A stretch of 64,000 nt of DNA from a virus (taxonomy: Duplodnaviria; Caudoviricetes), in IMG/VR virus record IMGVR_UViG_3300037010_001838; one strand, 5' to 3'. Positions 3,365 through 39,457 of this stretch are shown piece by piece (position 1 is the first letter of the stretch; each line of letters opens with the position of its first letter). Under the pieces are notes generated by a model. The model worked only from the letters and a program-made list of their open reading frames with translations, did no database searches and was not told where the DNA came from. Both the position numbers and the translations under genes were made by a program.

Positions 3365-3438
3365 GCTCAATTGGCTTAATGGTAAAGCAGGTGCTTCTAA
3401 AACACTTGACCGTCGGTTCGATTCCGACATTGGGCACC
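3365..3438 (+). tRNA. amber suppressor tRNA (CUA anticodon)
   Basis: acceptor GCTCAAT/ATTGGGC, D stem GCTT/AAGC, loop TT-CTA-AA (3395-3401) with a C31-A39 mismatch, T arm GTCGG-TTCGATT-CCGAC. Confidence 0.75.
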
Positions 3439-4139: not shown

Positions 4140-5190
4140 AGTATTAAGAAAGTCACTCTTTTAATTAGTTCTGTGAATTCAGAACGTTTCATCAGAAACA
4201 ATTTAAAAGATAAAGAATTACGCGCTTGTGCAAAGTAACCAACAGCGATGTTGTGAAAGCGGTAGGTCCTACAACTACCGCGCCCTGTAAGGGGTACAAA
4301 CAAGCAAGCCTGACCTACTCCGAAAGGAGCTGATTATCGCCAACGGTAGTCATATGAGGGAAGTTAGGGGTGTGGAAAGAACGAATGTTTACAAGCCTGC
4401 TCTGCAGGGAACTTGGGCATTTGGAGAGTAACGGGTTGTGCCGACCTCACGCCTACACAAACTAGCCATCTCAAAAGGTAAAGGGTAGTACAGTGGTCCG
4501 AACCCGCAAGTAAGGGCTGTTGTGCAAGTTGAGGGGGTTTTGGTACCTGTAATAGGGTGTCACGATTCCTGAAAACTGGTTGAGTAGTCGGCAGATGAAA
4601 AACATGAGGAGTGTGGTATTTTTATACTCAAAAGGTATGAAATCCACTGGAAACGCACTTCTTGGTAGGTTTAACAATGTTAGGGTTAACAGCCCATATA
4701 AATTTGGATTATATTACATAAAACGCAAAGACGTTTCCAGTGTAAAGTGAAAATGGCTTAATCCTTCAGCCGCAAGGTAATGAAGGCGTCCAAAACTCGC
4801 AAGGTCGAGGATGTTGAAAGAAAGTCGCACGCAGAGAGTTAGCGCTCTTGTACAGCTCGCAAGGTTGGCGGTAGACAGATAATCGAGTAGCTTTACATGT
4901 TGGTGGAAAAGCAACCACTTAAAAAATGCAGTCATGTTGATAGACATAGTTGTGCGAAAGCTGATTATGTGGATAAGAGAAGAACTCTAGCTGTAGCAGG
5001 TGATGAGATAATGTCTCGAAGGTATCAATAGTATAGGTTTAATCTCAACCTTATACAAAGTAAATGCCTCGATTGGGGTGTCTGCTTTAAACAATCTGTG
5101 TAGAACCTCCCTTGTAAAAGGGGTTAGAGAGTTGGTAATGTAGATTGTTTAAAGCAGACTTATGAACTGCCACTTTGAAAAAAGAGAGTA
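4140..5190 (+). ncRNA. large ornate ncRNA candidate (GOLLD/ROOL-like class)
   Basis: ~1 kb without a credible ORF, raised GC, many GNRA-capped hairpins, perfect 18-bp (5080-5097/5142-5159) and 11-bp (4645-4655/4732-4742) helices, next to tRNAs; boundaries approximate. Confidence 0.65.
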
Positions 5191-6129: not shown

Positions 6130-7632
6130 GTGAGCAAAGAATTTGTGGATGCCCTTTCTATTACAACCAATGTAGCGCACACGGAAAATGGTGCTGTTGC
6201 ATTTGATACAACCAAATCAGCTATGTTGGATTTGTTTGCACAAGGGGGTGCACTCCGCAATCGTGCTGATGATGAAATTCTTCGTTTGTTTTCAAAAGCT
6301 TATGCAGAAAATGCATTGTTTGCCACTCGTGCTATGTTCTATTTCAGGGACGCTCGTGGTGGTCAAGGTGAACGCGATACATTTAGAAAGCAATTAAAGT
6401 GGTTGATTAACGTTAACCCTGACGCTGTCCGTAAAAACATTAAACTTATTCCATACTTTGGACGTTGGGATGATTTGTATGTGTTATTTGATACAGAACT
6501 TGAAACAGATGCAATTACACTAATCTTTACACAGATTGCCGAAGACACGGCATCTGAACATCCCTCGTTGCTTGCAAAATGGTTGAAAAGTGAAAACGCT
6601 TCTTCAAAAGAAACGAAACGACTTGCAACAAAAACTCGTATAGGTCTTAAATTAAGTTCCAAAGCATATCGCTTGATGTTGAGCACTCTTCGTAAGAAAA
6701 TTAACATCGTTGAACGGTTGGTGTCTGCCAATCAGTGGGATAGTATTGAATACAGTGCCGTTCCTTCTCAAGCTAACTTGTTATATGGGAAAGCTTTCTT
6801 CACGCATGACGCTGAACGCCGTAAGAAATTCTTGGATTCTTTAAAGACTGGCGAAAAGAAAATCAATGCGAGTGTTCTTTTTCCATATGAAATCGTCCAT
6901 AAAGCACTTACGGTGGGCAGGAACACACCACAACACGAACGCCAACTCATAGATGCGTTGTGGGACGCTCTTCCAAACTATATTGGAGATAAACAAGAAA
7001 ATGCTCTTGCTGTAGTTGATGTGTCTGGTTCTATGGCTGGTCTTCCATTGGAAGTTGCTATTTCGGTTGGAATGTATTTGGCTGAACGTAACACTTGTGA
7101 AGCTTATCATAACAAGTTCATTACTTTTAGCTCTACACCTCAACTACTTAAAATTCAGGGAGCTGACCTTGTTGAAAAAATAGCTAATATGAATAGTTCT
7201 GCATGGGAAATGAATACAGATATTCAAGCTGTGTTCCGTTTGATTCTTACTGTTGCCAAACAAAACAAGTTAGCACAATCTGAATTACCACAGAAGTTGT
7301 ATATCATTTCTGATATGGAATTTGATGCCGCTATAAGCAACGCTAGATATTCTTATAAGAATCAATGTCGGGGTGTGGTTGACGAAAAATTTTTCCAAAC
7401 AATTTCTAAAGAATTTAGTGAGTGTGGATATACAATGCCCAATTTGGTGTTTTGGAATGTTGATGCTCGGAACCAACAGTTTCCAATGAGTATGGATGAG
7501 CGTGGTTTTCAAATGGTTAGTGGATGTAGTCCGTCTATCTTTAAGCACACAATAGGTGGAGAATTTATGTCTGCTTATGATTTGATGCTTGATGTTATTA
7601 ACAGTGAACGTTATCAACTCGTTACAATTTAA
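6130..7632 (+). CDS. TROVE/Ro60-related vWA protein (DUF2828-like)
   Basis: TENGA, RDARGGQGER and vWA MIDAS VVDVSGSM motifs; ISDMEFD; FWNV. Confidence 0.85.
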   Translation: MSKEFVDALSITTNVAHTENGAVAFDTTKSAMLDLFAQGGALRNRADDEILRLFSKAYAENALFATRAMFYFRDARGGQGERDTFRKQLKWLINVNPDAVRKNIKLIPYFGRWDDLYVLFDTELETDAITLIFTQIAEDTASEHPSLLAKWLKSENASSKETKRLATKTRIGLKLSSKAYRLMLSTLRKKINIVERLVSANQWDSIEYSAVPSQANLLYGKAFFTHDAERRKKFLDSLKTGEKKINASVLFPYEIVHKALTVGRNTPQHERQLIDALWDALPNYIGDKQENALAVVDVSGSMAGLPLEVAISVGMYLAERNTCEAYHNKFITFSSTPQLLKIQGADLVEKIANMNSSAWEMNTDIQAVFRLILTVAKQNKLAQSELPQKLYIISDMEFDAAISNARYSYKNQCRGVVDEKFFQTISKEFSECGYTMPNLVFWNVDARNQQFPMSMDERGFQMVSGCSPSIFKHTIGGEFMSAYDLMLDVINSERYQLVTI

Positions 7633-10931: not shown

Positions 10932-11288
10932 TTAATACATGTAATCAGAACCAATCGAAAAATTATCAAAATTACTTCCACTCCAATCATCAGACGTCCA
11001 ACGAGTTGTTGAATAACTATCCATCACGGAACCATAATCTTCTTCTATTTCAGGTAAAGAATTTTTTGATATACCCTTTTCAGGGAATTCTTCTAAATTT
11101 GTATTAGGTTGAACTTTTAAATTAATTTGATTCTTACGAGGACGTCCTCGAGGACGCTTTTCTTTAACTTCAACCAACTCTATTGGTATTTTACGAGGAC
11201 GTCCTCGAGGACGTTTTTCTGTTTGAACTACTTCGATAACATTTTCTTTATTTCTGTTCTTGCTACCTTTTGGTCTAGCCATACACAA
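10932..11288 (-). CDS. AT-hook repeat protein
   Basis: two EKRPRGRPRK repeats, an ARPKGSKN motif and an acidic C-terminus. Confidence 0.7.
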   Translation of the reverse strand: MCMARPKGSKNRNKENVIEVVQTEKRPRGRPRKIPIELVEVKEKRPRGRPRKNQINLKVQPNTNLEEFPEKGISKNSLPEIEEDYGSVMDSYSTTRWTSDDWSGSNFDNFSIGSDYMY

Positions 11289-14300: not shown

Positions 14301-14520
14301 TCTTCCAAGTCTAACTCTTGATTGGTCTTCCGATATAGGTTTTGCAAGTTCAGAAGGTTTGTTATGGAATTTCTCAAATCGTTGTTTGGATGTTCGTAAT
14401 AATCAAGTAGCAGTTACAGGATACACGTACCAAAATGGAGCAGGAACAAATAATAGCCAAATGATGACTGTGAAAATACCGGTTGCCAACGTATTATTTT
14501 CTGTGGGGAATTGTAAATAA
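11386..14520 (+). CDS. large tail-fibre/virion structural protein
   Basis: 1044 aa, Ser/Thr/Gly-rich; fibre motifs (KVSKSGDTMTGFLTL, AATKQYVD, VDAKGRVT, KPTTLAGYGITD); propeller-like repeats at the C-terminus. Confidence 0.8.
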   Translation: MQLSFRQGLVQYQSNFLSWSTVRSDSISLSTTNKPVTVTFSQQSSEYLLVEPLGQNATVRWTGLPVSNSSDFWIFWDIDNLTALVTYGFTTVAPVFGPIDPFQTTIPFPTIPATGQHWFDTSSMTMKVWSGSSWTPKIRVFAAKIENGSIIVPYPPGTQVGVASPIKSGRILRDGTGTPIKKANKTFVTSEDRFFIENSDVRTAELETSIVVGIARESIPSYSAVKLEDFNDYYLANYEDTTAGFIGMAIDSATYGESLFVTIQGMITNPAWDWQTPNAKIWIDSNGQLTDVNPGIATPTRGFQQPIARVISPTSIIFGQGYFNDAGTVTNTVVTQKASGSIIGITELSLDPLNLNTPIAVGDNDPRMSDARTPLAHTHQSTDVFYQGTPLDTTLNLIMSDLSGKVSKSGDTMTGFLTLNANPVANLQAATKQYVDSAANQTITLSGDISGSGTSGITTTLSNSGVTAGTYNNSALTSTPFTVDAKGRVTATGTPITITPDWASVLWKPTTLAGYGITDGQPLNVDLTAISNLATGTTGVLTKTGPGTWTLGAASSGASNTIFQEDTSLTITDSGTNGTMSYVVDGRLVMTTDTRNIRFFSGAPDSWVSVVESGAFTLDNTGGSTVKIDSLGNIITLGSVNQSSLTSVLVIKVDSTGNTIWQRLISDNNGTSGATADASAIDSQDNIIMAVNVNHYGTSDTQPILKLDSDGNILWQVGVTQNIDINSPPGTYQPQITDIVVDSSNDVYAGGFLIIQNPDNPGLRTNAGLIVKLSGIDGSVMWQQLIQDSTSSRGDCHLTGITYNPSLNQIYVCGNLLTKDSFSNSSNNGFVAAYDSAGNRQWISLSDVSGDTTHINDQAYDAHGNLVNYKTFSGITLGVGSTLHNSGGTSIYVCGQAFTPRLTNFCICEYIATQGAGITATIGELVTSRTYDNSYGNHSQLYEIVATPTELIAVGNPQTNTFGSDWSILKISLPSLTLDWSSDIGFASSEGLLWNFSNRCLDVRNNQVAVTGYTYQNGAGTNNSQMMTVKIPVANVLFSVGNCK

Positions 14521-14581
14521 TAGCCAAACGATGACTGTAAAAATACCGGTTGCCAACGTATTATTTTCTGTGGGGAATTGT
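14448..14581 (+). repeat. 67-nt tandem duplication at the 3' end of the fibre gene
   Basis: 14448-14514 and 14515-14581, 2 mismatches. Confidence 0.95.
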
Positions 14582-18027: not shown

Positions 18028-18042
18028 AAATTTAAACTTTTT

Positions 18043-18310: not shown

Positions 18311-18326
18311 TGTTCATTAACAATTT
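18311..18326 (+). promoter_or_regulatory. boxA-like antitermination element A
   Basis: TGTTCATTAACAATTT versus rrn boxA TGCTCTTTAACA. Confidence 0.7.
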
Positions 18327-18605: not shown

Positions 18606-18744
18606 GGGTGATTCGGGTGGCTAAGGCGGGTTCGATTCCCGTATGCTCCACCAAAAGAACTTTTAAATGTTGAAGTTCTTTTAATGGGGGCATGATGGTT
18701 GCTGCCGACGGGCAAGACGAGTTCGATTCTCGTATCGTCCACCA
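18606..18744 (+). other. two truncated tRNA-like units (T arm plus CCA end)
   Basis: 18606-18653 and 18686-18744 have a T arm and TCCACCA end but no anticodon arm. Confidence 0.55.
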
Positions 18745-23519: not shown

Positions 23520-23593
23520 GGGGCTGTAGTATAAAGGGATTACGGAAGCTTTGCAAGCTTTTTATCGGGGTTCGATTCCCCGCAGTTCCACCA
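23520..23593 (+). tRNA. tRNA-Ala(UGC)
   Basis: loop TT-TGC-AA, G3:U70, CCA. Confidence 0.9.
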
Positions 23594-23742
23594 AATTTTA
23601 CAATACAGGAAAGTAACGGAACCGAGAGCCTGTATCTCTCCGACGTTCCAGCCTTTTAATTCAGTTGTCTTCAAATTTAACATCTGGTATAATCTCTTAT
23701 AATAAATACTTTACAAATATAACTATAATGGAGAACAATATT

Positions 23743-27490: not shown

Positions 27491-27682
27491 ATGCCTCTTT
27501 ATACTTATCAATGTTCATCGTGTCATTCGAAAGAAGATGTGCTCGAAAAAGTCCAAGAATCCAATGAACCAAAAATTTGTCCATCTTGTGGAAAACCAAC
27601 GTTTTTGAGAATTATCTCACAAGGAATACCCTTTCATCTAAAAGGTGAAGGGTATTACGAAACTGACTTTAAAAACAAGTAG
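27491..27682 (+). CDS. FmdB-family zinc-ribbon protein
   Basis: MPLYTYQCSSC...CPSCG...FHLKGEGYYETD. Confidence 0.9.
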   Translation: MPLYTYQCSSCHSKEDVLEKVQESNEPKICPSCGKPTFLRIISQGIPFHLKGEGYYETDFKNK

Positions 27683-27869
27683 TCAATCGCGTTCTTTGTT
27701 CAATGGCTTCGGAGATGAACGTGATCAACTCCGTATACTCTGTCGGATCATACACCATTACTACCGTTGTTTTTAGTGGGCTGGTTTGTCTAAAATAGTC
27801 GTCCACCACCACATCAAACAATTGATTGTCAACATAATCAATTGTCCAAGTGGTTTCCCCAAATAGCAA
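27669..27869 (-). CDS. hypothetical protein
   Basis: ORF in the repeat-bounded segment. Confidence 0.35.
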   Translation of the reverse strand: MLFGETTWTIDYVDNQLFDVVVDDYFRQTSPLKTTVVMVYDPTEYTELITFISEAIEQRTRLTTCF

Positions 27870-28616: not shown

Positions 28617-29071
28617 TTAGAATTCAATTTCAAGTGCGTTTGCAAACACGTTGGCATCTGCAATTGCGCGTGTAGAAAGGTGTTGAAGTTTGATCACAAA
28701 TACTCCAGATAAAATAACAGGATGAAGCAATCATCTCACATTCACCCCATAAAGTCAACAATCACTTTTTCAACGGTAAAAACACAACGGTAAAGGATGT
28801 ATTCCAGAGTATGGTTTTGTTCCTGATGCTTTTTCCACTCATCGTGAAACTTCCACTCAAGAGGTTCACGCGATAAGCGGTGGACGTTCTTACCGTCGTG
28901 CGCCATTACTCTGTAACCTCTTCTTCTGTGAACAGTACCCAAGTTCCTGGTGCGTATGCAACAGCAACCAGGCCAGATTCCATCAAAATGTTTTTGAGAA
29001 TTATCTCACAAGGAATACCCTTTCATCTAAAAGGTGAAGGGTATTACGAAACTGACTTTAAAAACAAGTAG

Positions 29072-29608
29072 TCAATCGCGTTCTTTGTAAAATGTAAGGT
29101 GCTTTGTTTTTAACACTTCAACAAAACTTGGAGATACTGCCCAAGAAGGTGTAACTCGTTCATCGTGAAAATGTGTAGCACCGTGTGTTATATCTGTACG
29201 TTGTTGAATTACAAATGCGTGCATAATACTTGCAGCAATTTCTTGAGCACTGGCCCATTTATCAGATTCCGTGTTTATGTCTTTATCCCCCTCACATTGA
29301 TATGAGAATTGACACACGTGCTTTCCGGACCGAGTTTTGGTTGTTTGATGTGTAACTGCACACACTGTTTTAGGATAGTCTGAATCTATTACACGATTTA
29401 TTACTACGTTTGCAACAGCAAGTTGTGATTTTTTATAATCTGCAGCTTCAAAATATATTGTTTCAGCTAAACAGTATCGTTGTTTGTCAATAGAGCTTTT
29501 ATTTGTATCAATAAGTTGTTGTAAATTGTTCTGTTTTTCTTGGTATTCAGAACCCGCGTAAACTGTAGATGTAACTAACAAAAAAATGGACAATAGTATC
29601 CCTCTCAT
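29072..29608 (-). CDS. SleB-like cell wall hydrolase
   Basis: CLAETIYFEA, AVANVVINRV, YPKTVCAV, CQFSY, GATHFH. Confidence 0.9.
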   Translation of the reverse strand: MRGILLSIFLLVTSTVYAGSEYQEKQNNLQQLIDTNKSSIDKQRYCLAETIYFEAADYKKSQLAVANVVINRVIDSDYPKTVCAVTHQTTKTRSGKHVCQFSYQCEGDKDINTESDKWASAQEIAASIMHAFVIQQRTDITHGATHFHDERVTPSWAVSPSFVEVLKTKHLTFYKERD

Positions 29609-31296: not shown

Positions 31297-31398
31297 ATCG
31301 TTAGTTTAAAAATACTATATCTTTTAAGGAGACATAAGATGTCAACGACGTATATGATGCTCCAAGCACCAGATGTGTTCTTGAGATTGATAAATAAA

Positions 31399-31454
31399 TG
31401 TTGACTTTTATAAATAAGTCATATATACTTGTATCAACAGTTGAGCAAAGTGCT
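31399..31454 (+). promoter_or_regulatory. tRNA-cluster promoter B with palindrome
   Basis: identical to 18043-18098. Confidence 0.9.
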
Positions 31455-31468
31455 TAACTAAATAGTTA

Positions 31469-31564
31469 GGTGTTGAAAGCTAGGACGTCCCGGTACTAAC
31501 AAAACATAGAAATATGTGGGTGCGTAGAAGCGTATATTAAGCAGACGATAAAGTAGTAAACACC
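31469..31564 (+). ncRNA. structured 5'-UTR element upstream of leader B
   Basis: GGTGTT/AACACC closing helix, ACATA-GAAA-TATGT hairpin. Confidence 0.4.
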
Positions 31565-31587
31565 ATTTAATTTAAGGAGCTTTACAA

Positions 31588-31683
31588 ATGTTCGTAACCA
31601 GACAACAACAGAGTATTAGTATCATTCGCCGACGCCAAGTGCGTCGCGACAGTGATATTATTATGTCTGGAGGCTGGGTATAG
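31588..31683 (+). CDS. attenuator leader peptide B (MFVTRQQQSISIIRRRQVRRDSDIIMSGGWV)
   Basis: AAGGAG RBS, 31 codons rich in Gln/Arg/Ile/Ser/Asp/Val. Confidence 0.9.
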   Translation: MFVTRQQQSISIIRRRQVRRDSDIIMSGGWV

Positions 31684-31706
31684 CATAAAGCTAAATTCTT
31701 AAAAAG

Positions 31707-31739
31707 AAAAACCCAGTTTCCAAAAGAGACTGGGTTTTT
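31707..31739 (+). terminator. attenuator terminator B
   Basis: AAAAACCCAGTTTC-CAAAA-GAGACTGGGTTTTT; alternative pairing with GGAGGCTGGGT at 31669-31679. Confidence 0.9.
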
Positions 31740-31750
31740 CGTTTTACAAC

Positions 31751-31766
31751 TGTTCATTAAAAATTT
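31751..31766 (+). promoter_or_regulatory. boxA-like element B
   Basis: TGTTCATTAAAAATTT. Confidence 0.65.
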
Positions 31767-31776
31767 GAAAATATAT

Positions 31777-31851
31777 TGGGAAGAAGCCGATTGGTCGAGG
31801 CGGTGCGTTCTGAGCGCATTCGTATAGAGTTCGATTCTCTACTTCCTAGCC
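31777..31851 (+). tRNA. tRNA-Gln(CUG)
   Basis: GTGCG-TTCTGAG-CGCAT. Confidence 0.85.
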
Positions 31852-31857
31852 TTTAAT

Positions 31858-31931
31858 TGGCCCGTGGTGTAGCGGTAGCACAGAAGATTTTGAATCTTCT
31901 AGTCCAAGTTCAACTCTTGGTGGGCTTGCCA
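31858..31931 (+). tRNA. tRNA-Gln(UUG)
   Basis: GAAGA-TTTTGAA-TCTTC, CCA. Confidence 0.9.
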
Positions 31932-31944
31932 TTTGAAGTATAAT

Positions 31945-32019
31945 ACCGTCGTAGCTCTCGGGGAGAGCATCTCACTGTCTATGAGATTCAGGTGGGTTCG
32001 AGTCCCATCGGCGGTGCCA
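31945..32019 (+). tRNA. tRNA-Asp(GUC)
   Basis: TCTCA-CTGTCTA-TGAGA, G73, CCA. Confidence 0.9.
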
Positions 32020-32026
32020 AAACAGA

Positions 32027-32103
32027 TGCCCCGTTCATCTGGTGATGACGCAAGGTTTTGACCCTTGTTGATTTTTCGAGTCCGATTCTCGACGGGGTTG
32101 CCA
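32027..32103 (+). tRNA. tRNA-Gln(UUG)
   Basis: CAAGG-TTTTGAC-CCTTG, CCA; atypical D and T loops. Confidence 0.75.
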
Positions 32104-32303
32104 AAAAGGACGAAGTAAAATGAGCAAAGAAGATAAAAAGTAGCAAAAAATGCGTGGGCAGTTGAATAGATTAGAAACAGAATTAAAAAAGGCCCTAATA
32201 AAAAGTCTTCCAACGTTGCTGAAATTGACGTTTCTGAGTATAATAGGTATAATAGAAGGATTCAAGATTTAAGAAAGAAATTGGGGATGTAATGATTTGA
32301 TAT

Positions 32304-32380
32304 GCCCTTGTATATCAGTGGACTAGATTGTCTCGCTTCGAACGAGAAGGTCGGGAGTTCGAATCTCTCCAAGGGTACCA
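32304..32380 (+). tRNA. tRNA-Arg(UCG)
   Basis: TCTCG-CTTCGAA-CGAGA, CCA. Confidence 0.9.
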
Positions 32381-32823: not shown

Positions 32824-32899
32824 GGGACCATAACTCAGTTGGTAGAGTATCTGCCCTACAAGCAGACTGTCATCGGTTCGAACCCGGTTGGTCCTACCA
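32824..32899 (+). tRNA. tRNA-Val(UAC)
   Basis: TCTGC-CCTACAA-GCAGA, CCA. Confidence 0.85.
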
Positions 32900-32905
32900 A
32901 ACAAC

Positions 32906-32990
32906 ACCACTGTGGCCGATAGGTTAGGCACAGGACCGATAATCCTGGAGGGAAACCTCGAAGTTGGTTCGATTCCAACCGGTGGTACCA
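32906..32990 (+). tRNA. tRNA-Ile(GAU) with long variable arm
   Basis: CAGGA-CCGATAA-TCCTG; V arm GAGG-GAAA-CCTC; CCA. Confidence 0.8.
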
Positions 32991-33084
32991 AATCAACACC
33001 GTCAAATAGCATTCGGTCTGCTATACCGAAGATGACGAAAGGGTGTGTACAACCTGACAGTAGTAGCGTGTTGTTTTAACTTTT

Positions 33085-33164
33085 GGGTGTGGGGACTGCA
33101 TGGCGTGGTCACCGGACTGTCACTTCGGAAAATCAGGAGGGTTCAATTCCCTTCACACCCGCCA
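33085..33164 (+). tRNA. tRNA-Asp(GUC)
   Basis: CCGGA-CTGTCAC-TTCGG, G73, CCA. Confidence 0.9.
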
Positions 33165-33172
33165 AAAATTAT

Positions 33173-33244
33173 CTCTCATCTAGGGGAACTAGCTTATTGA
33201 CTACGAATCAATTCTGGATCGTTCAACTCGGTCATGGGGGGCCA
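33173..33244 (+). tRNA. tRNA-Arg(ACG)
   Basis: TTGA-CTACGAA-TCAA, CCA; weak D arm. Confidence 0.7.
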
Positions 33245-33324
33245 ACATCATAAACAAATGTTGATATTAGTCTTTGTATTCAATACAATACAATGAGAGA
33301 ACAAACTTTTAAAGATTATTAACT

Positions 33325-33594
33325 ATGTCTAACACATTAAGACACAAAGAGAAGAATAAATCCAAAAGAGCAATACGTCAATATCGGGAAGATACAGATT
33401 GCTCTACCGAACACCCGTTTTGGATAGGTAAAGAAGAATTGGAAAACCCTGAACTGTTAAACATATTATACGATTTTTTGAATAAACCAGGGACTCGGCA
33501 TGGAAACAAAAGACGCTTTGAAGCATACATGAAGTGGAAAAAACGAAAGAAACAAAGAATTAAGTTAAACAAATTAGTTGATGAAATAGAATAA
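33325..33594 (+). CDS. basic hypothetical protein
   Basis: 89 aa, Lys/Arg-rich. Confidence 0.5.
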   Translation: MSNTLRHKEKNKSKRAIRQYREDTDCSTEHPFWIGKEELENPELLNILYDFLNKPGTRHGNKRRFEAYMKWKKRKKQRIKLNKLVDEIE

Positions 33595-33599
33595 TTATT

Positions 33600-33685
33600 G
33601 GAAGATGAACTGTTCTGGTGTTCAGGTTCGTTTGCTAAACGAAACGCTCCGCAAGGGGTGGGGTCCGATTCCTCCGTCTTCCGCC
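33600..33685 (+). tRNA. tRNA-Ser(GCU)
   Basis: TTCGT-TTGCTAA-ACGAA, long V arm, G73. Confidence 0.9.
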
Positions 33686-33840
33686 TGGCACGCAAGATAG
33701 ATATACCGGTTGTCTCTAGTTGGAAATGATGTGAAAAATATTTGTGCACAAATATTGTAGCACGTTTTCATTAACTTTTATGCCGCCAAATTATAAATAT
33801 TCGTTTAATTAAAACACTTTAAAGTAATGCACCTTTATTC

Positions 33841-33912
33841 CCCCTTGCCAATGGAGTGGTGGGACGCCTTCTAAGCGACCTTATGCCTGTTCGATTCAGG
33901 CCAAGGGGACCA
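33841..33912 (+). tRNA. tRNA-Arg(UCU)
   Basis: loop CT-TCT-AA, CCA; compact D arm. Confidence 0.7.
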
Positions 33913-36421: not shown

Positions 36422-36497
36422 CTCGTCGAAGCCAAAGGGAAAGGCAATAGTTTCCTAAACTATTATTTTGTCAGTTCGAATCTGACCGACGGGACCA
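36422..36497 (+). tRNA. tRNA-Arg(CCU)
   Basis: ATAGT-TTCCTAA-ACTAT, CCA. Confidence 0.85.
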
Positions 36498-37859: not shown

Positions 37860-37875
37860 TGTTCTTTAAAAATTT
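37860..37875 (+). promoter_or_regulatory. boxA-like element C
   Basis: TGTTCTTTAAAAATTT. Confidence 0.7.
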
Positions 37876-38312: not shown

Positions 38313-38433
38313 ACATATATAACAAGGAAACGAGGTAGTTGACTATCAAAACGATTCTAACTATAATATTTTAAGAAGCATTTGGGGTTTTCTTAGTTGA
38401 GAGATTGATAAATACTCAAAATTGGAGTATTGT

Positions 38434-39072
38434 ATGAAGTTATTTGAAATTATTGGAGGAGAAGCTCTTCGAAAATCTGATAGTGTTAAAGTTAGAAATG
38501 GTTACACAGACACAGATTCATTAAAACGCCTTGGGGTTGGCCTTCAGGCTGTTGTAGTCGATAGAATAAAGAAGCCTGGAGTGGTAACAAAAGTCTTTGG
38601 TTTTAACACAGAAGAAGATGGGTATCTTCAATTCCTGCGGTTTATTCAAAAACACCAAAATAACCCCTTTTTACCTCGAATTTATAAAATTCGTCTGTAT
38701 CGGAAAGAGTTTGATATATACATCAATAGAACAGATTCTGTTTATGATAATACAGGAGTTGTTGACATGGAAAAATTATTACCATTAAATTCTCCTAAAA
38801 TTAAAGATGCTATTTCTCATCAACTTCAGGCACTCGGAATGAATGAACAGTTTGCCGAAAGTCTTGCAACGAGCCAATTGATTAATTATTATCATGATGC
38901 TGTTGTTAACAAAAAAATTGAGCGCAACGCTCAATTTGAAGAAGTTGTTAATTTCTTACGCACGTATGGTGCTATAGCAGATTTAGACTTACATTCAGGA
39001 AACATTATGGCAAGGTTAACTTCTGTTGGTCCCCAGTTAGTTCTAATTGACCCTATTTGGAAACCTGATTAA
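38434..39072 (+). CDS. protein-kinase-like protein with capsid-targeting-like N-terminus
   Basis: LGVGLQAVV, VVTKV, DLHSGNIM, LVLIDP; MKLFEI start after TAAATA. Confidence 0.75.
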   Translation: MKLFEIIGGEALRKSDSVKVRNGYTDTDSLKRLGVGLQAVVVDRIKKPGVVTKVFGFNTEEDGYLQFLRFIQKHQNNPFLPRIYKIRLYRKEFDIYINRTDSVYDNTGVVDMEKLLPLNSPKIKDAISHQLQALGMNEQFAESLATSQLINYYHDAVVNKKIERNAQFEEVVNFLRTYGAIADLDLHSGNIMARLTSVGPQLVLIDPIWKPD

Positions 39073-39122
39073 AAATATCTGTTGACCCTTTAATCGTTTC
39101 TGTATATAATATTCCTTAATAT

Positions 39123-39341: not shown

Positions 39342-39457
39342 GGAGGTCTAGCCTAGTGGATAGGCACCGGACTTATTCGAGCATCTGCGAAATCGGGTGT
39401 TCCTGTTAATCCGGACCGTAATGGTATAGCGTGAGTTCGAATCTCCGGGCCTCTACC
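39342..39457 (+). tRNA. tRNA-Asn(GUU)-like with 31-nt hairpin insertion in the anticodon loop
   Basis: CCGGA-CT[39374-39404]GTTAA-TCCGG; V arm hairpin; imperfect T stem. Confidence 0.7.

Follow-up and report, generated by a model that had tools for sequence, protein, structure and literature searches.

In a large uncultured phage, the region in front of one tRNA array (unit B) probably acts as a trp-type, ribosome-mediated transcription attenuator that gates the phage tRNA operon and would be opened by slow decoding of matched codons. From the sequence and from folding models, we put the probability of this reading at about 80%. All sequence-level hallmarks of such an attenuator occur in unit B and go beyond chance expectation, in support of the interpretation offered by an earlier sequence-only reading. 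The ORF of unit B, its codon match to the downstream tRNAs, the alternative helices and the conservation of these helices can be read directly from the DNA; their coordinates are collected in Table 1. The window, by which we mean the whole 64,000-nucleotide stretch analysed, is part of the phage genome, has a GC content of ~36%, carries rIIA and contains 32 tRNA genes in a default ARAGORN run.

The record nearest to the window is the IMG/VR contig G001 (179 kb), which is 99% identical at unit B. A blastn search with the region and its flank found no match among 50,697 phage records, and tblastn with rIIA found nothing above 32% identity, which argues that the phage has no cultured relative. 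Sequencing runs containing the unit B stretch are microbial-mat, sediment and vent metagenomes, with no RNA runs among them, and contigs assembled from matching metagenome runs yielded strain variants only. Relatives were sought by scanning IMG/VR and JGI metagenomes with promoter and 5′-hairpin patterns, which returned three lineages only: window/G001; G002, an IMG/VR contig of 56 kb; and G003, an IMG/VR contig of 257 kb that is identical over the compared units to the 342-kb metagenome contig Ga0209958_1000078. The remaining matches were chance occurrences inside unrelated genes. A neighbouring 120-aa protein was rejected as a marker for finding relatives, being too widespread. Units are labelled W_ in the window/G001 lineage, G2_ in G002 and M_ in G003/Ga0209958_1000078, with a suffix A–D for unit type.

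Table 1. Features of unit B and of related units, in window positions
Feature	Position	Strand	Details
Promoter block	31397–31430	+	−35 TTGACT 31401–31406; 17-nt spacer; −10 TATACT 31424–31429
Structured insert between promoter and SD	31431–31584	+	154 nt; lineage-specific
5′ stem-loop just past presumed transcription start	31439–31459	+	minimum-energy fold
Shine–Dalgarno (SD) AAGGAG	31574–31579	+	8 nt before ATG 31588
Leader ORF	31588–31683	+	31 codons; MFVTRQQQSISIIRRRQVRRDSDIIMSGGWV; stop TAG 31681–31683
Region 1	31594–31612	+	pairs with 31666–31681 in the ribosome-free fold, sequestering the antiterminator strand
Control run	31600–31662	+	codons 5–25; 21 consecutive, all readable by downstream array tRNAs
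Inner hairpin within ORF	31613–31664	+	apical GACGC-CAAGU-GCGUC; also present in G002 unit B
Antiterminator 5′ strand (region 2)	31668–31679	+	ends 1 nt before stop codon
Intrinsic terminator	31709–31745	+	stem 31709–31720 with 31726–31737, 12 bp, −16.1 kcal/mol, then UUUUUCGUUUU
rrn-boxA-like box	31751–31763	+	TGTTCATTAAAAA
boxA-like boxes of the three window units	18311–18323, 31751–31763, 37860–37872	+	
Array, first tRNAs	31777–32380	+	Gln(CUG), Gln(UUG), Asp(GUC), Gln(UUG), Arg(UCG); ARAGORN
Array, remainder	32824–33912	+	Val(UAC), Ile(GAU), Asp(GUC), Arg(ACG), Ser(GCU), Arg(UCU); ARAGORN, Rfam, G002 synteny
Unit A			leader rich in F, T, A, P, E, W, H, M; downstream tRNAs Pro, Ala, Glu, Phe, Thr, His, Trp, Met
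Unit C			leader core run INNVNVNNK; downstream tRNAs Val, Asn, Lys
Unit D			leader rich in G, L, S, Y, C, K; downstream tRNAs Tyr, Cys, Leu, Gly, Ser, Lys
G002 unit B			leader MFAVSRTQQIIIDRQRQVRRDSDSISSEGTGSC; array Gln, Gln, Gln, Arg, Ile, Asp, Arg, Ser
G003 unit B			leader MFTITTQIINRQMNIVVDRQDCEGTGFCVNF; array Val, Ile, Ile, Gln, Asp, Asp, Met, Asn
G003 D-type unit			leader MFTLKSKSYCSKLLGGLS; array Gly, Cys, Gly, Tyr, Lys, Lys, Leu, Ser, with further Leu, Ser

Leader ORF, codon match and tRNA array

A sequence-only reading of this region had placed attenuator B at 31588–31739, the first position being that of the leader ATG, and had listed the leader codons as CAA/CAG, AGA/CGC/CGA/CGT, AGT, ATT/ATC, GTA/GTG and GAC/GAT, with AGG absent. 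The codon list was right, as were the positions given for CCAGACA (31598–31604), TGTCTGG (31664–31670), GGAGGCTGGGT (31669–31679) and ACCCAGTTTCC (31711–31721). Judged by standard wobble rules against the window's long ORFs as background, 23 of the 30 post-ATG codons are readable by the array, compared with a background fraction of 0.241 (binomial P = 2e-9), and the chance of 21 matched codons in a row is ~1e-12. Outside the readable set lie the three codons that follow the ATG, except GTA, and the tail ATG TCT GGA GGC TGG, most of which makes up the antiterminator strand. AT-rich phage DNA contains many short ORFs and terminators, and the leader could in principle be an unremarkable small gene, or an ORF that arose by chance, next to an ordinary terminator, its codon match and attenuator likeness being coincidental. 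We regard this as very improbable given the P value of unit B alone and the recurrence of the match in nine further units, and given that neither the antiterminator (0/1,000 shuffles) nor the modelled switch (0/200) was reproduced by chance. Moreover, what is conserved is composition and structure rather than peptide sequence.

The list of downstream tRNAs that had been proposed holds in large part. ARAGORN at default settings calls Gln(CUG), Gln(UUG), Asp(GUC), Arg(UCG), Arg(UCU), Val(UAC) and Ile(GAU), and also the Arg(CCU) that was said to lie apart at 36422, whereas Arg(ACG) and Ser(GCU) are weak calls. Rfam tRNA matches cover all of the tRNAs in 31777–32380 except Gln(UUG) at 32027. Arg(ACG) (33173–33244) is called only at a relaxed ARAGORN threshold, and G002 has a conserved copy of its anticodon loop at the syntenic position. 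Ser(GCU) (33600–33682) is a sub-threshold match to the Rfam tRNA-Sec model (36.7 bits) and has a cloverleaf fold with a GCU anticodon; ARAGORN calls a Ser(gct) in G002 at the matching place. Both are probably real genes.

Other arrays and flanks of the window hold further RNA-like and repeated sequences. Two tRNAs are called by ARAGORN only with introns allowed: Tyr(GUA), the first gene of array D, on the G001 contig upstream of the window (7396–7514), and Lys(UUU) at window 39342–39455 (Rfam tRNA, 31 bits). Among the array A tRNAs, T-arm/acceptor-like fragments at 18626–18700 and 23566–23625 (+ strand) give weak tmRNA-model matches (25–28 bits) and may be degenerate or unusual tRNA-like genes. 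A 216-aa ORF (38422–39072, + strand) among the array C tRNAs matches a PHROG (E = 6e-14) annotated as a T7 gp0.7-like protein kinase/host-transcription inhibitor. A GOLLD RNA at 4606–5051 (+ strand), again among tRNA genes, is a full-length match to Rfam RF02032 (198.8 bits; cut-off 150). The window also contains a 67-nt tandem duplication (14448–14581, 97% identity), a 108-nt direct repeat (27598–27705 and 28987–29094, 1.4 kb apart, 97% identity) and, at 11125–11220, two copies of a 39-nt unit that contains the palindrome ACGAGGACGTCCTCG.

Leader B is the only leader with a TAG stop, and read-through of this TAG would take the ribosome over the terminator. A well-formed, amber-suppressor-like tRNA with a CUA anticodon lies at 3365–3438 (+ strand; ‘Pyl’ in ARAGORN; Rfam tRNA, 63.9 bits). 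Because of this tRNA and the TAG of leader B, we considered stop-codon recoding in the window, which is not supported: of the three stops, TAG gives the smallest gain in ORF length when read as sense.

Upstream of the leader, the unit B promoter scores 10/12 in a promoter scan. Near-identical copies of the promoter block lie at 18041 and 37635 in the window, and its spacer is also conserved in G002 and G003. The same 5′ stem-loop is found in unit A and in M-lineage units. The insert between promoter and SD matches no Rfam family and is not repeated anywhere else in the DNA that was compared; metagenome contigs from two runs skip it, and G002-type variants have 31 nt in its place. The leader ORF consequently starts ~150 nt after the presumed transcription start in unit B and after 31–58 nt in other units (33 nt from presumed start to ATG in G002 unit B). 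A mini-ORF inside the insert (MWVRRSVY, 31515–31541) is without a clear SD.

We infer that the leader ORF is translated. All ten units have a purine-rich SD 7–9 nt ahead of the ATG, and homologous leader ORFs of 31–33 codons occur in G001, G002 and G003. The leader as a whole folds very stably (z = −7.95 over 31437–31745), and in the full-length leader a long hairpin hides the SD, as might be expected if an untranslated structured RNA, such as a protein or ligand switch or a processing signal, controlled the terminator and the ORF were incidental. Several findings make this most improbable. First, the region matches no Rfam family at threshold. Second, SD/ATG spacing and the 31–33-codon ORF are kept in eight of nine units (the exception, M_D, has 18 codons) despite 27% sequence divergence. 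Finally, substitutions keep codon-set membership, which is relevant only to an RNA that is decoded.

Alternative helices and ribosome-mask folding

The terminator lies 32 nt upstream of the first tRNA; a simple terminator scan left it unlisted. Its 5′ arm can pair instead with the end of the leader ORF. The sequence-only reading had proposed an 11-bp helix between 31669–31679 and 31711–31721; this pairing is present, includes two G-U pairs and extends to 12 bp (31668–31679 with 31711–31722; −21.3 kcal/mol). Among 1,000 dinucleotide shuffles of the ORF and spacer (mean −7.2 ± 1.8), none gave a duplex as good. The corresponding counts for W_B, G2_B and M_B are 0, 4 and 0 of 1,000, and the antiterminator strand ends 0, 5 and 12 nt from the stop codon in these three units; that it adjoins the stop codon in unit B had been claimed and is borne out. 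The antiterminator of unit A is weak, no better than shuffles.

A second proposed helix, the 7-bp 1:2 pairing of CCAGACA with TGTCTGG, is possible (−9.6 kcal/mol), but the minimum-energy fold uses another register and the pairing is not conserved. In the minimum-energy register, CCAG (31598–31601) pairs with CTGG (31674–31677) and CAGA (31609–31612) with TCTG (31666–31669), covering the antiterminator strand more fully than the CCAGACA/TGTCTGG helix would. These 1:2 helices are held within a long imperfect hairpin (31571–31703) that also sequesters the SD. The inner hairpin within the ORF is a candidate RNA-polymerase pause hairpin.

To place the ribosome on this RNA, we folded the transcript up to the terminator 3′ arm with nucleotides A−15 to A+12 around the A-site codon kept single-stranded; these are equilibrium models with an assumed footprint. 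In W_B without a ribosome, the probability of the terminator is 1.00. If pairs that span the ribosome are barred, this probability falls to ≤0.01 for A-site codons 4–10 or 14–22, is 0.39–0.63 for codons 11–13, rises to 0.77 at codon 23 and is ≥0.99 from codon 24 to the stop. The modelled switch thus takes place as the A-site moves from codon 22 to codon 24, some two codons short of where the matched run ends. The proposal that a ribosome completing the leader would cover the antiterminator strand agrees with the terminator being restored from codon 24 onward, and, for the broader proposal of a full 1:2/2:3/3:4 switch, equilibrium modelling with the assumed footprint gives the predicted three-state behaviour. 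When ribosome-spanning pairs are allowed, W_B stalls at codons 11–21 mostly give the terminator.

Other units behave similarly in ribosome-mask folding. G2_B and M_B likewise switch near the end of their own matched runs; in W_D and W_C the switch coincides with the end of the unit's own run. Shuffling codon order reproduced the switch in 0 of 200 cases in each of W_B, G2_B and M_B. The ribosome-free terminator probabilities of G2_B (0.21–0.25) and W_D (0.01) both favour the antiterminator. Because the ribosome-free state thus differs among homologues, the region 1:2 element is not a conserved part of the design.

Paralogous units and diverged relatives

The window lineage has four units with a common promoter, three of them in the window. 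The window copies at 18.0 kb and 37.6 kb each have a promoter, SD, 31–33-codon ORF, terminator, boxA-like box and tRNA array; the fourth, unit D, lies upstream of the window in G001. When each leader is scored against each array, the codon matrix is diagonal-dominant in both the window and M lineages. Across the four window-lineage leaders, own-array fractions are 0.50, 0.65, 0.77 and 0.31. Leader B scores 0.77 on its own array and 0.00–0.13 on foreign arrays; foreign arrays never score above 0.20 with leaders A, B and D, and leader C reaches 0.25–0.28 on arrays A and B. In total, the codon match is seen in unit B and nine further units of three lineages.

This correspondence extends to isoacceptors, a point that bears on the nature of the signal. 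Serine codons follow the local tRNA, with AGT in leader B (Ser GCU) and TCN in leader D; leader D encodes lysine by AAG and leader C by AAA; and valine is GTA/GTG in leader B (Val UAC) and GTT in leader C. The trp and his attenuators respond to charged tRNA, and an amino-acid shortage would also stall the leader ribosome. The same attenuator could therefore serve as a stress or timing switch that reports amino-acid starvation or general translation capacity, and the presence of six amino acids in one leader would make it responsive to many shortages. We consider this signal unlikely. The match holds at the level of codon and isoacceptor, with Ser AGY/TCN, Lys AAG/AAA and Val GTR/GTT split according to local tRNAs; leader composition tracks tRNA content across lineages; and extra tRNA would give no relief from amino-acid starvation. 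We infer instead that, physiologically, the attenuator would respond to the supply of tRNAs and not to that of amino acids.

The diverged relatives preserve both codon match and pairing while changing sequence, although the covariation evidence comes from few sequences, in three lineages. G002 unit B is 73% identical to the window over the leader. In the ungapped block shared by W_B and G2_B, all five codon differences (three substitutions, I→D, R→Q and I→S, plus two synonymous changes) stay within the readable set. In G002, the terminator arm changes from CCCAG to CCCGG together with a change of the antiterminator from CUGGG to CCGGG, which is compensatory. In M_B, Asn and Met codons have been gained by the leader, and tRNAs for both amino acids are present in the array. 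The M_B antiterminator, GGGAC-GGGUUU, and the strand that it pairs with, AAACCCAGUCCC, have both changed, and the replacement of GGAGG/UUUCC in the window by GGGAC/GUCCC in M is compensatory. In the D-type leader of G003, the array supplies a tRNA for the amino acid at each position after MFT, and the wobble rules applied give a match for 13 of 17 codons. The A-type leader of G003 also matches its own array.

A combined scan for ORF, terminator and codon match recovers all three window units. Two other tRNA-rich phages gave no convincing unit in the same scan: Vibrio phage ValKK3, with 26 ARAGORN tRNA calls in the stretch scanned and 30 Rfam hits across its record, and the uncultured phage LR756511.1 (595 kb), with 60 tRNAs. 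The design is thus lineage-restricted and is not shared by tRNA-rich phages in general.

Proposed mechanism, known systems and implications

In the attenuation model, host RNA polymerase would start at the conserved sigma70-type promoter, and a ribosome would load on the leader ORF behind it. If this ribosome were slow at any of codons 5–25, which specify Arg, Gln, Ser (AGY), Ile, Val (GTR) and Asp, the strand 31668–31679 would remain free and could pair with 31711–31722 once the latter had been transcribed, blocking the terminator stem. Polymerase would then pass the boxA-like box and enter the tRNA array. Under fast decoding, by contrast, the ribosome would reach the last codons or the stop and cover 31668–31679, allowing the terminator to form and transcription to stop near 31740. 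The control codons are those read by the gated tRNAs, and the predicted sign of regulation is therefore negative feedback on the supply of these tRNAs. The attenuator need not control the whole array. Near-consensus sigma70-like promoters (11/12) lie in or after the tRNA arrays at 32225–32253, 38339–38367 and 39082–39110 (+ strand), and distal tRNAs and interspersed ORFs may be transcribed independently of the attenuator from internal promoter-like sites such as 32225–32253.

The boxA-like box allows a different view of the same region. Matches to GYTCTTTAAMAA with at most one mismatch on the + strand of the 64 kb occur only at 18312, 31752 and 37861, each right behind a unit terminator, and similar boxes are present in G002 and G003. 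Long untranslated RNAs, as the arrays would be, are normal Rho targets. A stalled ribosome could thus uncouple from polymerase and expose the transcript to Rho, giving regulation of the opposite sign, with the box counteracting termination through Nus factors. Such Rho/Nus coupling seems highly improbable here, as it leaves unexplained the strong, conserved antiterminator complementarity and its placement against the stop codon, and a hairpin followed by a U-tract terminates without Rho. Under ribosome-mediated attenuation, the box has a parallel in rrn operons: TGTTCATTAAAAA resembles the rrn boxA consensus, TGCTCTTTAACAA, and both precede long untranslated stable-RNA genes. The unit B box differs in lying behind a probable attenuator, and is a candidate NusB/NusE site.

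Unit B shares its organization with the enterobacterial trpL, hisL, leuL and pheL attenuators: a short, promoter-proximal ORF has an SD and a run of control codons, the 5′ arm of the intrinsic terminator is also part of an antiterminator, and the stop codon stands where a ribosome finishing the leader would block that antiterminator. The nearest cases are the multivalent leaders thrL (Thr, Ile) and ilvL of ilvGMEDA (Ile, Leu, Val), which, like unit B, combine several amino acids in one leader. Rfam scores for Thr_leader (RF00506; 31649–31743, 27.1 bits, cut-off 55) and His_leader (RF00514; 37729–37860, 30.1 bits, cut-off 49) are far below threshold, and unit B is therefore not a member of those families. 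In contrast to the enterobacterial leaders, unit B would gate tRNA genes rather than biosynthetic enzymes, so that its output feeds back directly on the sensor; it matches six amino-acid types at the codon and isoacceptor level; and it is phage-encoded, belongs to a paralogous set that partitions the tRNA complement and has a boxA-like box behind it.

Two other systems offer partial parallels. The E. coli pheST attenuator, with its pheM leader, gates the mRNA of a tRNA synthetase, senses one amino acid and is cellular; it shares with unit B the leader-peptide attenuation of a component of the translation apparatus, as opposed to a biosynthetic pathway. T-box riboswitches also make a terminator/antiterminator decision that reports the state of a specific tRNA, and control genes for tRNA charging or amino-acid supply. 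A T-box, however, binds uncharged tRNA directly, without an ORF or ribosome, whereas the sensor in unit B would be the ribosome; an Rfam scan of the region found no match to the T-box or any other family. We found no description of leader-peptide attenuation of tRNA genes in a full-text literature search that covered a minority of subscription journals, and we know of no earlier example of attenuation acting on tRNA genes, with a regulated product that acts back on the ribosome doing the sensing.

More broadly, to our knowledge the regulation by phages of their own tRNA genes is essentially unknown, and phage tRNAs are usually discussed as aids to codon usage or as substitutes where degradation or defence nucleases have removed those of the host. 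A leader attenuator written in the codons of the tRNAs that it gates would be a direct sensor of demand, and the model is concrete in its defined helices, codons and tRNAs. The four units would split the phage tRNA set between them. More tentatively, and with somewhat less than even confidence, we suggest that they form a closed-loop controller of tRNA supply by subset, in which each of four attenuators tests the codons of its own operon and opens on demand. If so, the phage would detect and offset the loss of host tRNAs, whether through host shut-off or through tRNA-cleaving defence nucleases of the host, without the cost of constitutive tRNA synthesis. A short ORF, terminator and boxA-like box in front of a tRNA array, together with a codon match between leader and array, provide a signature that could be sought in viral metagenomes and may help to assign both function and transcription-unit boundaries to phage tRNA clusters.
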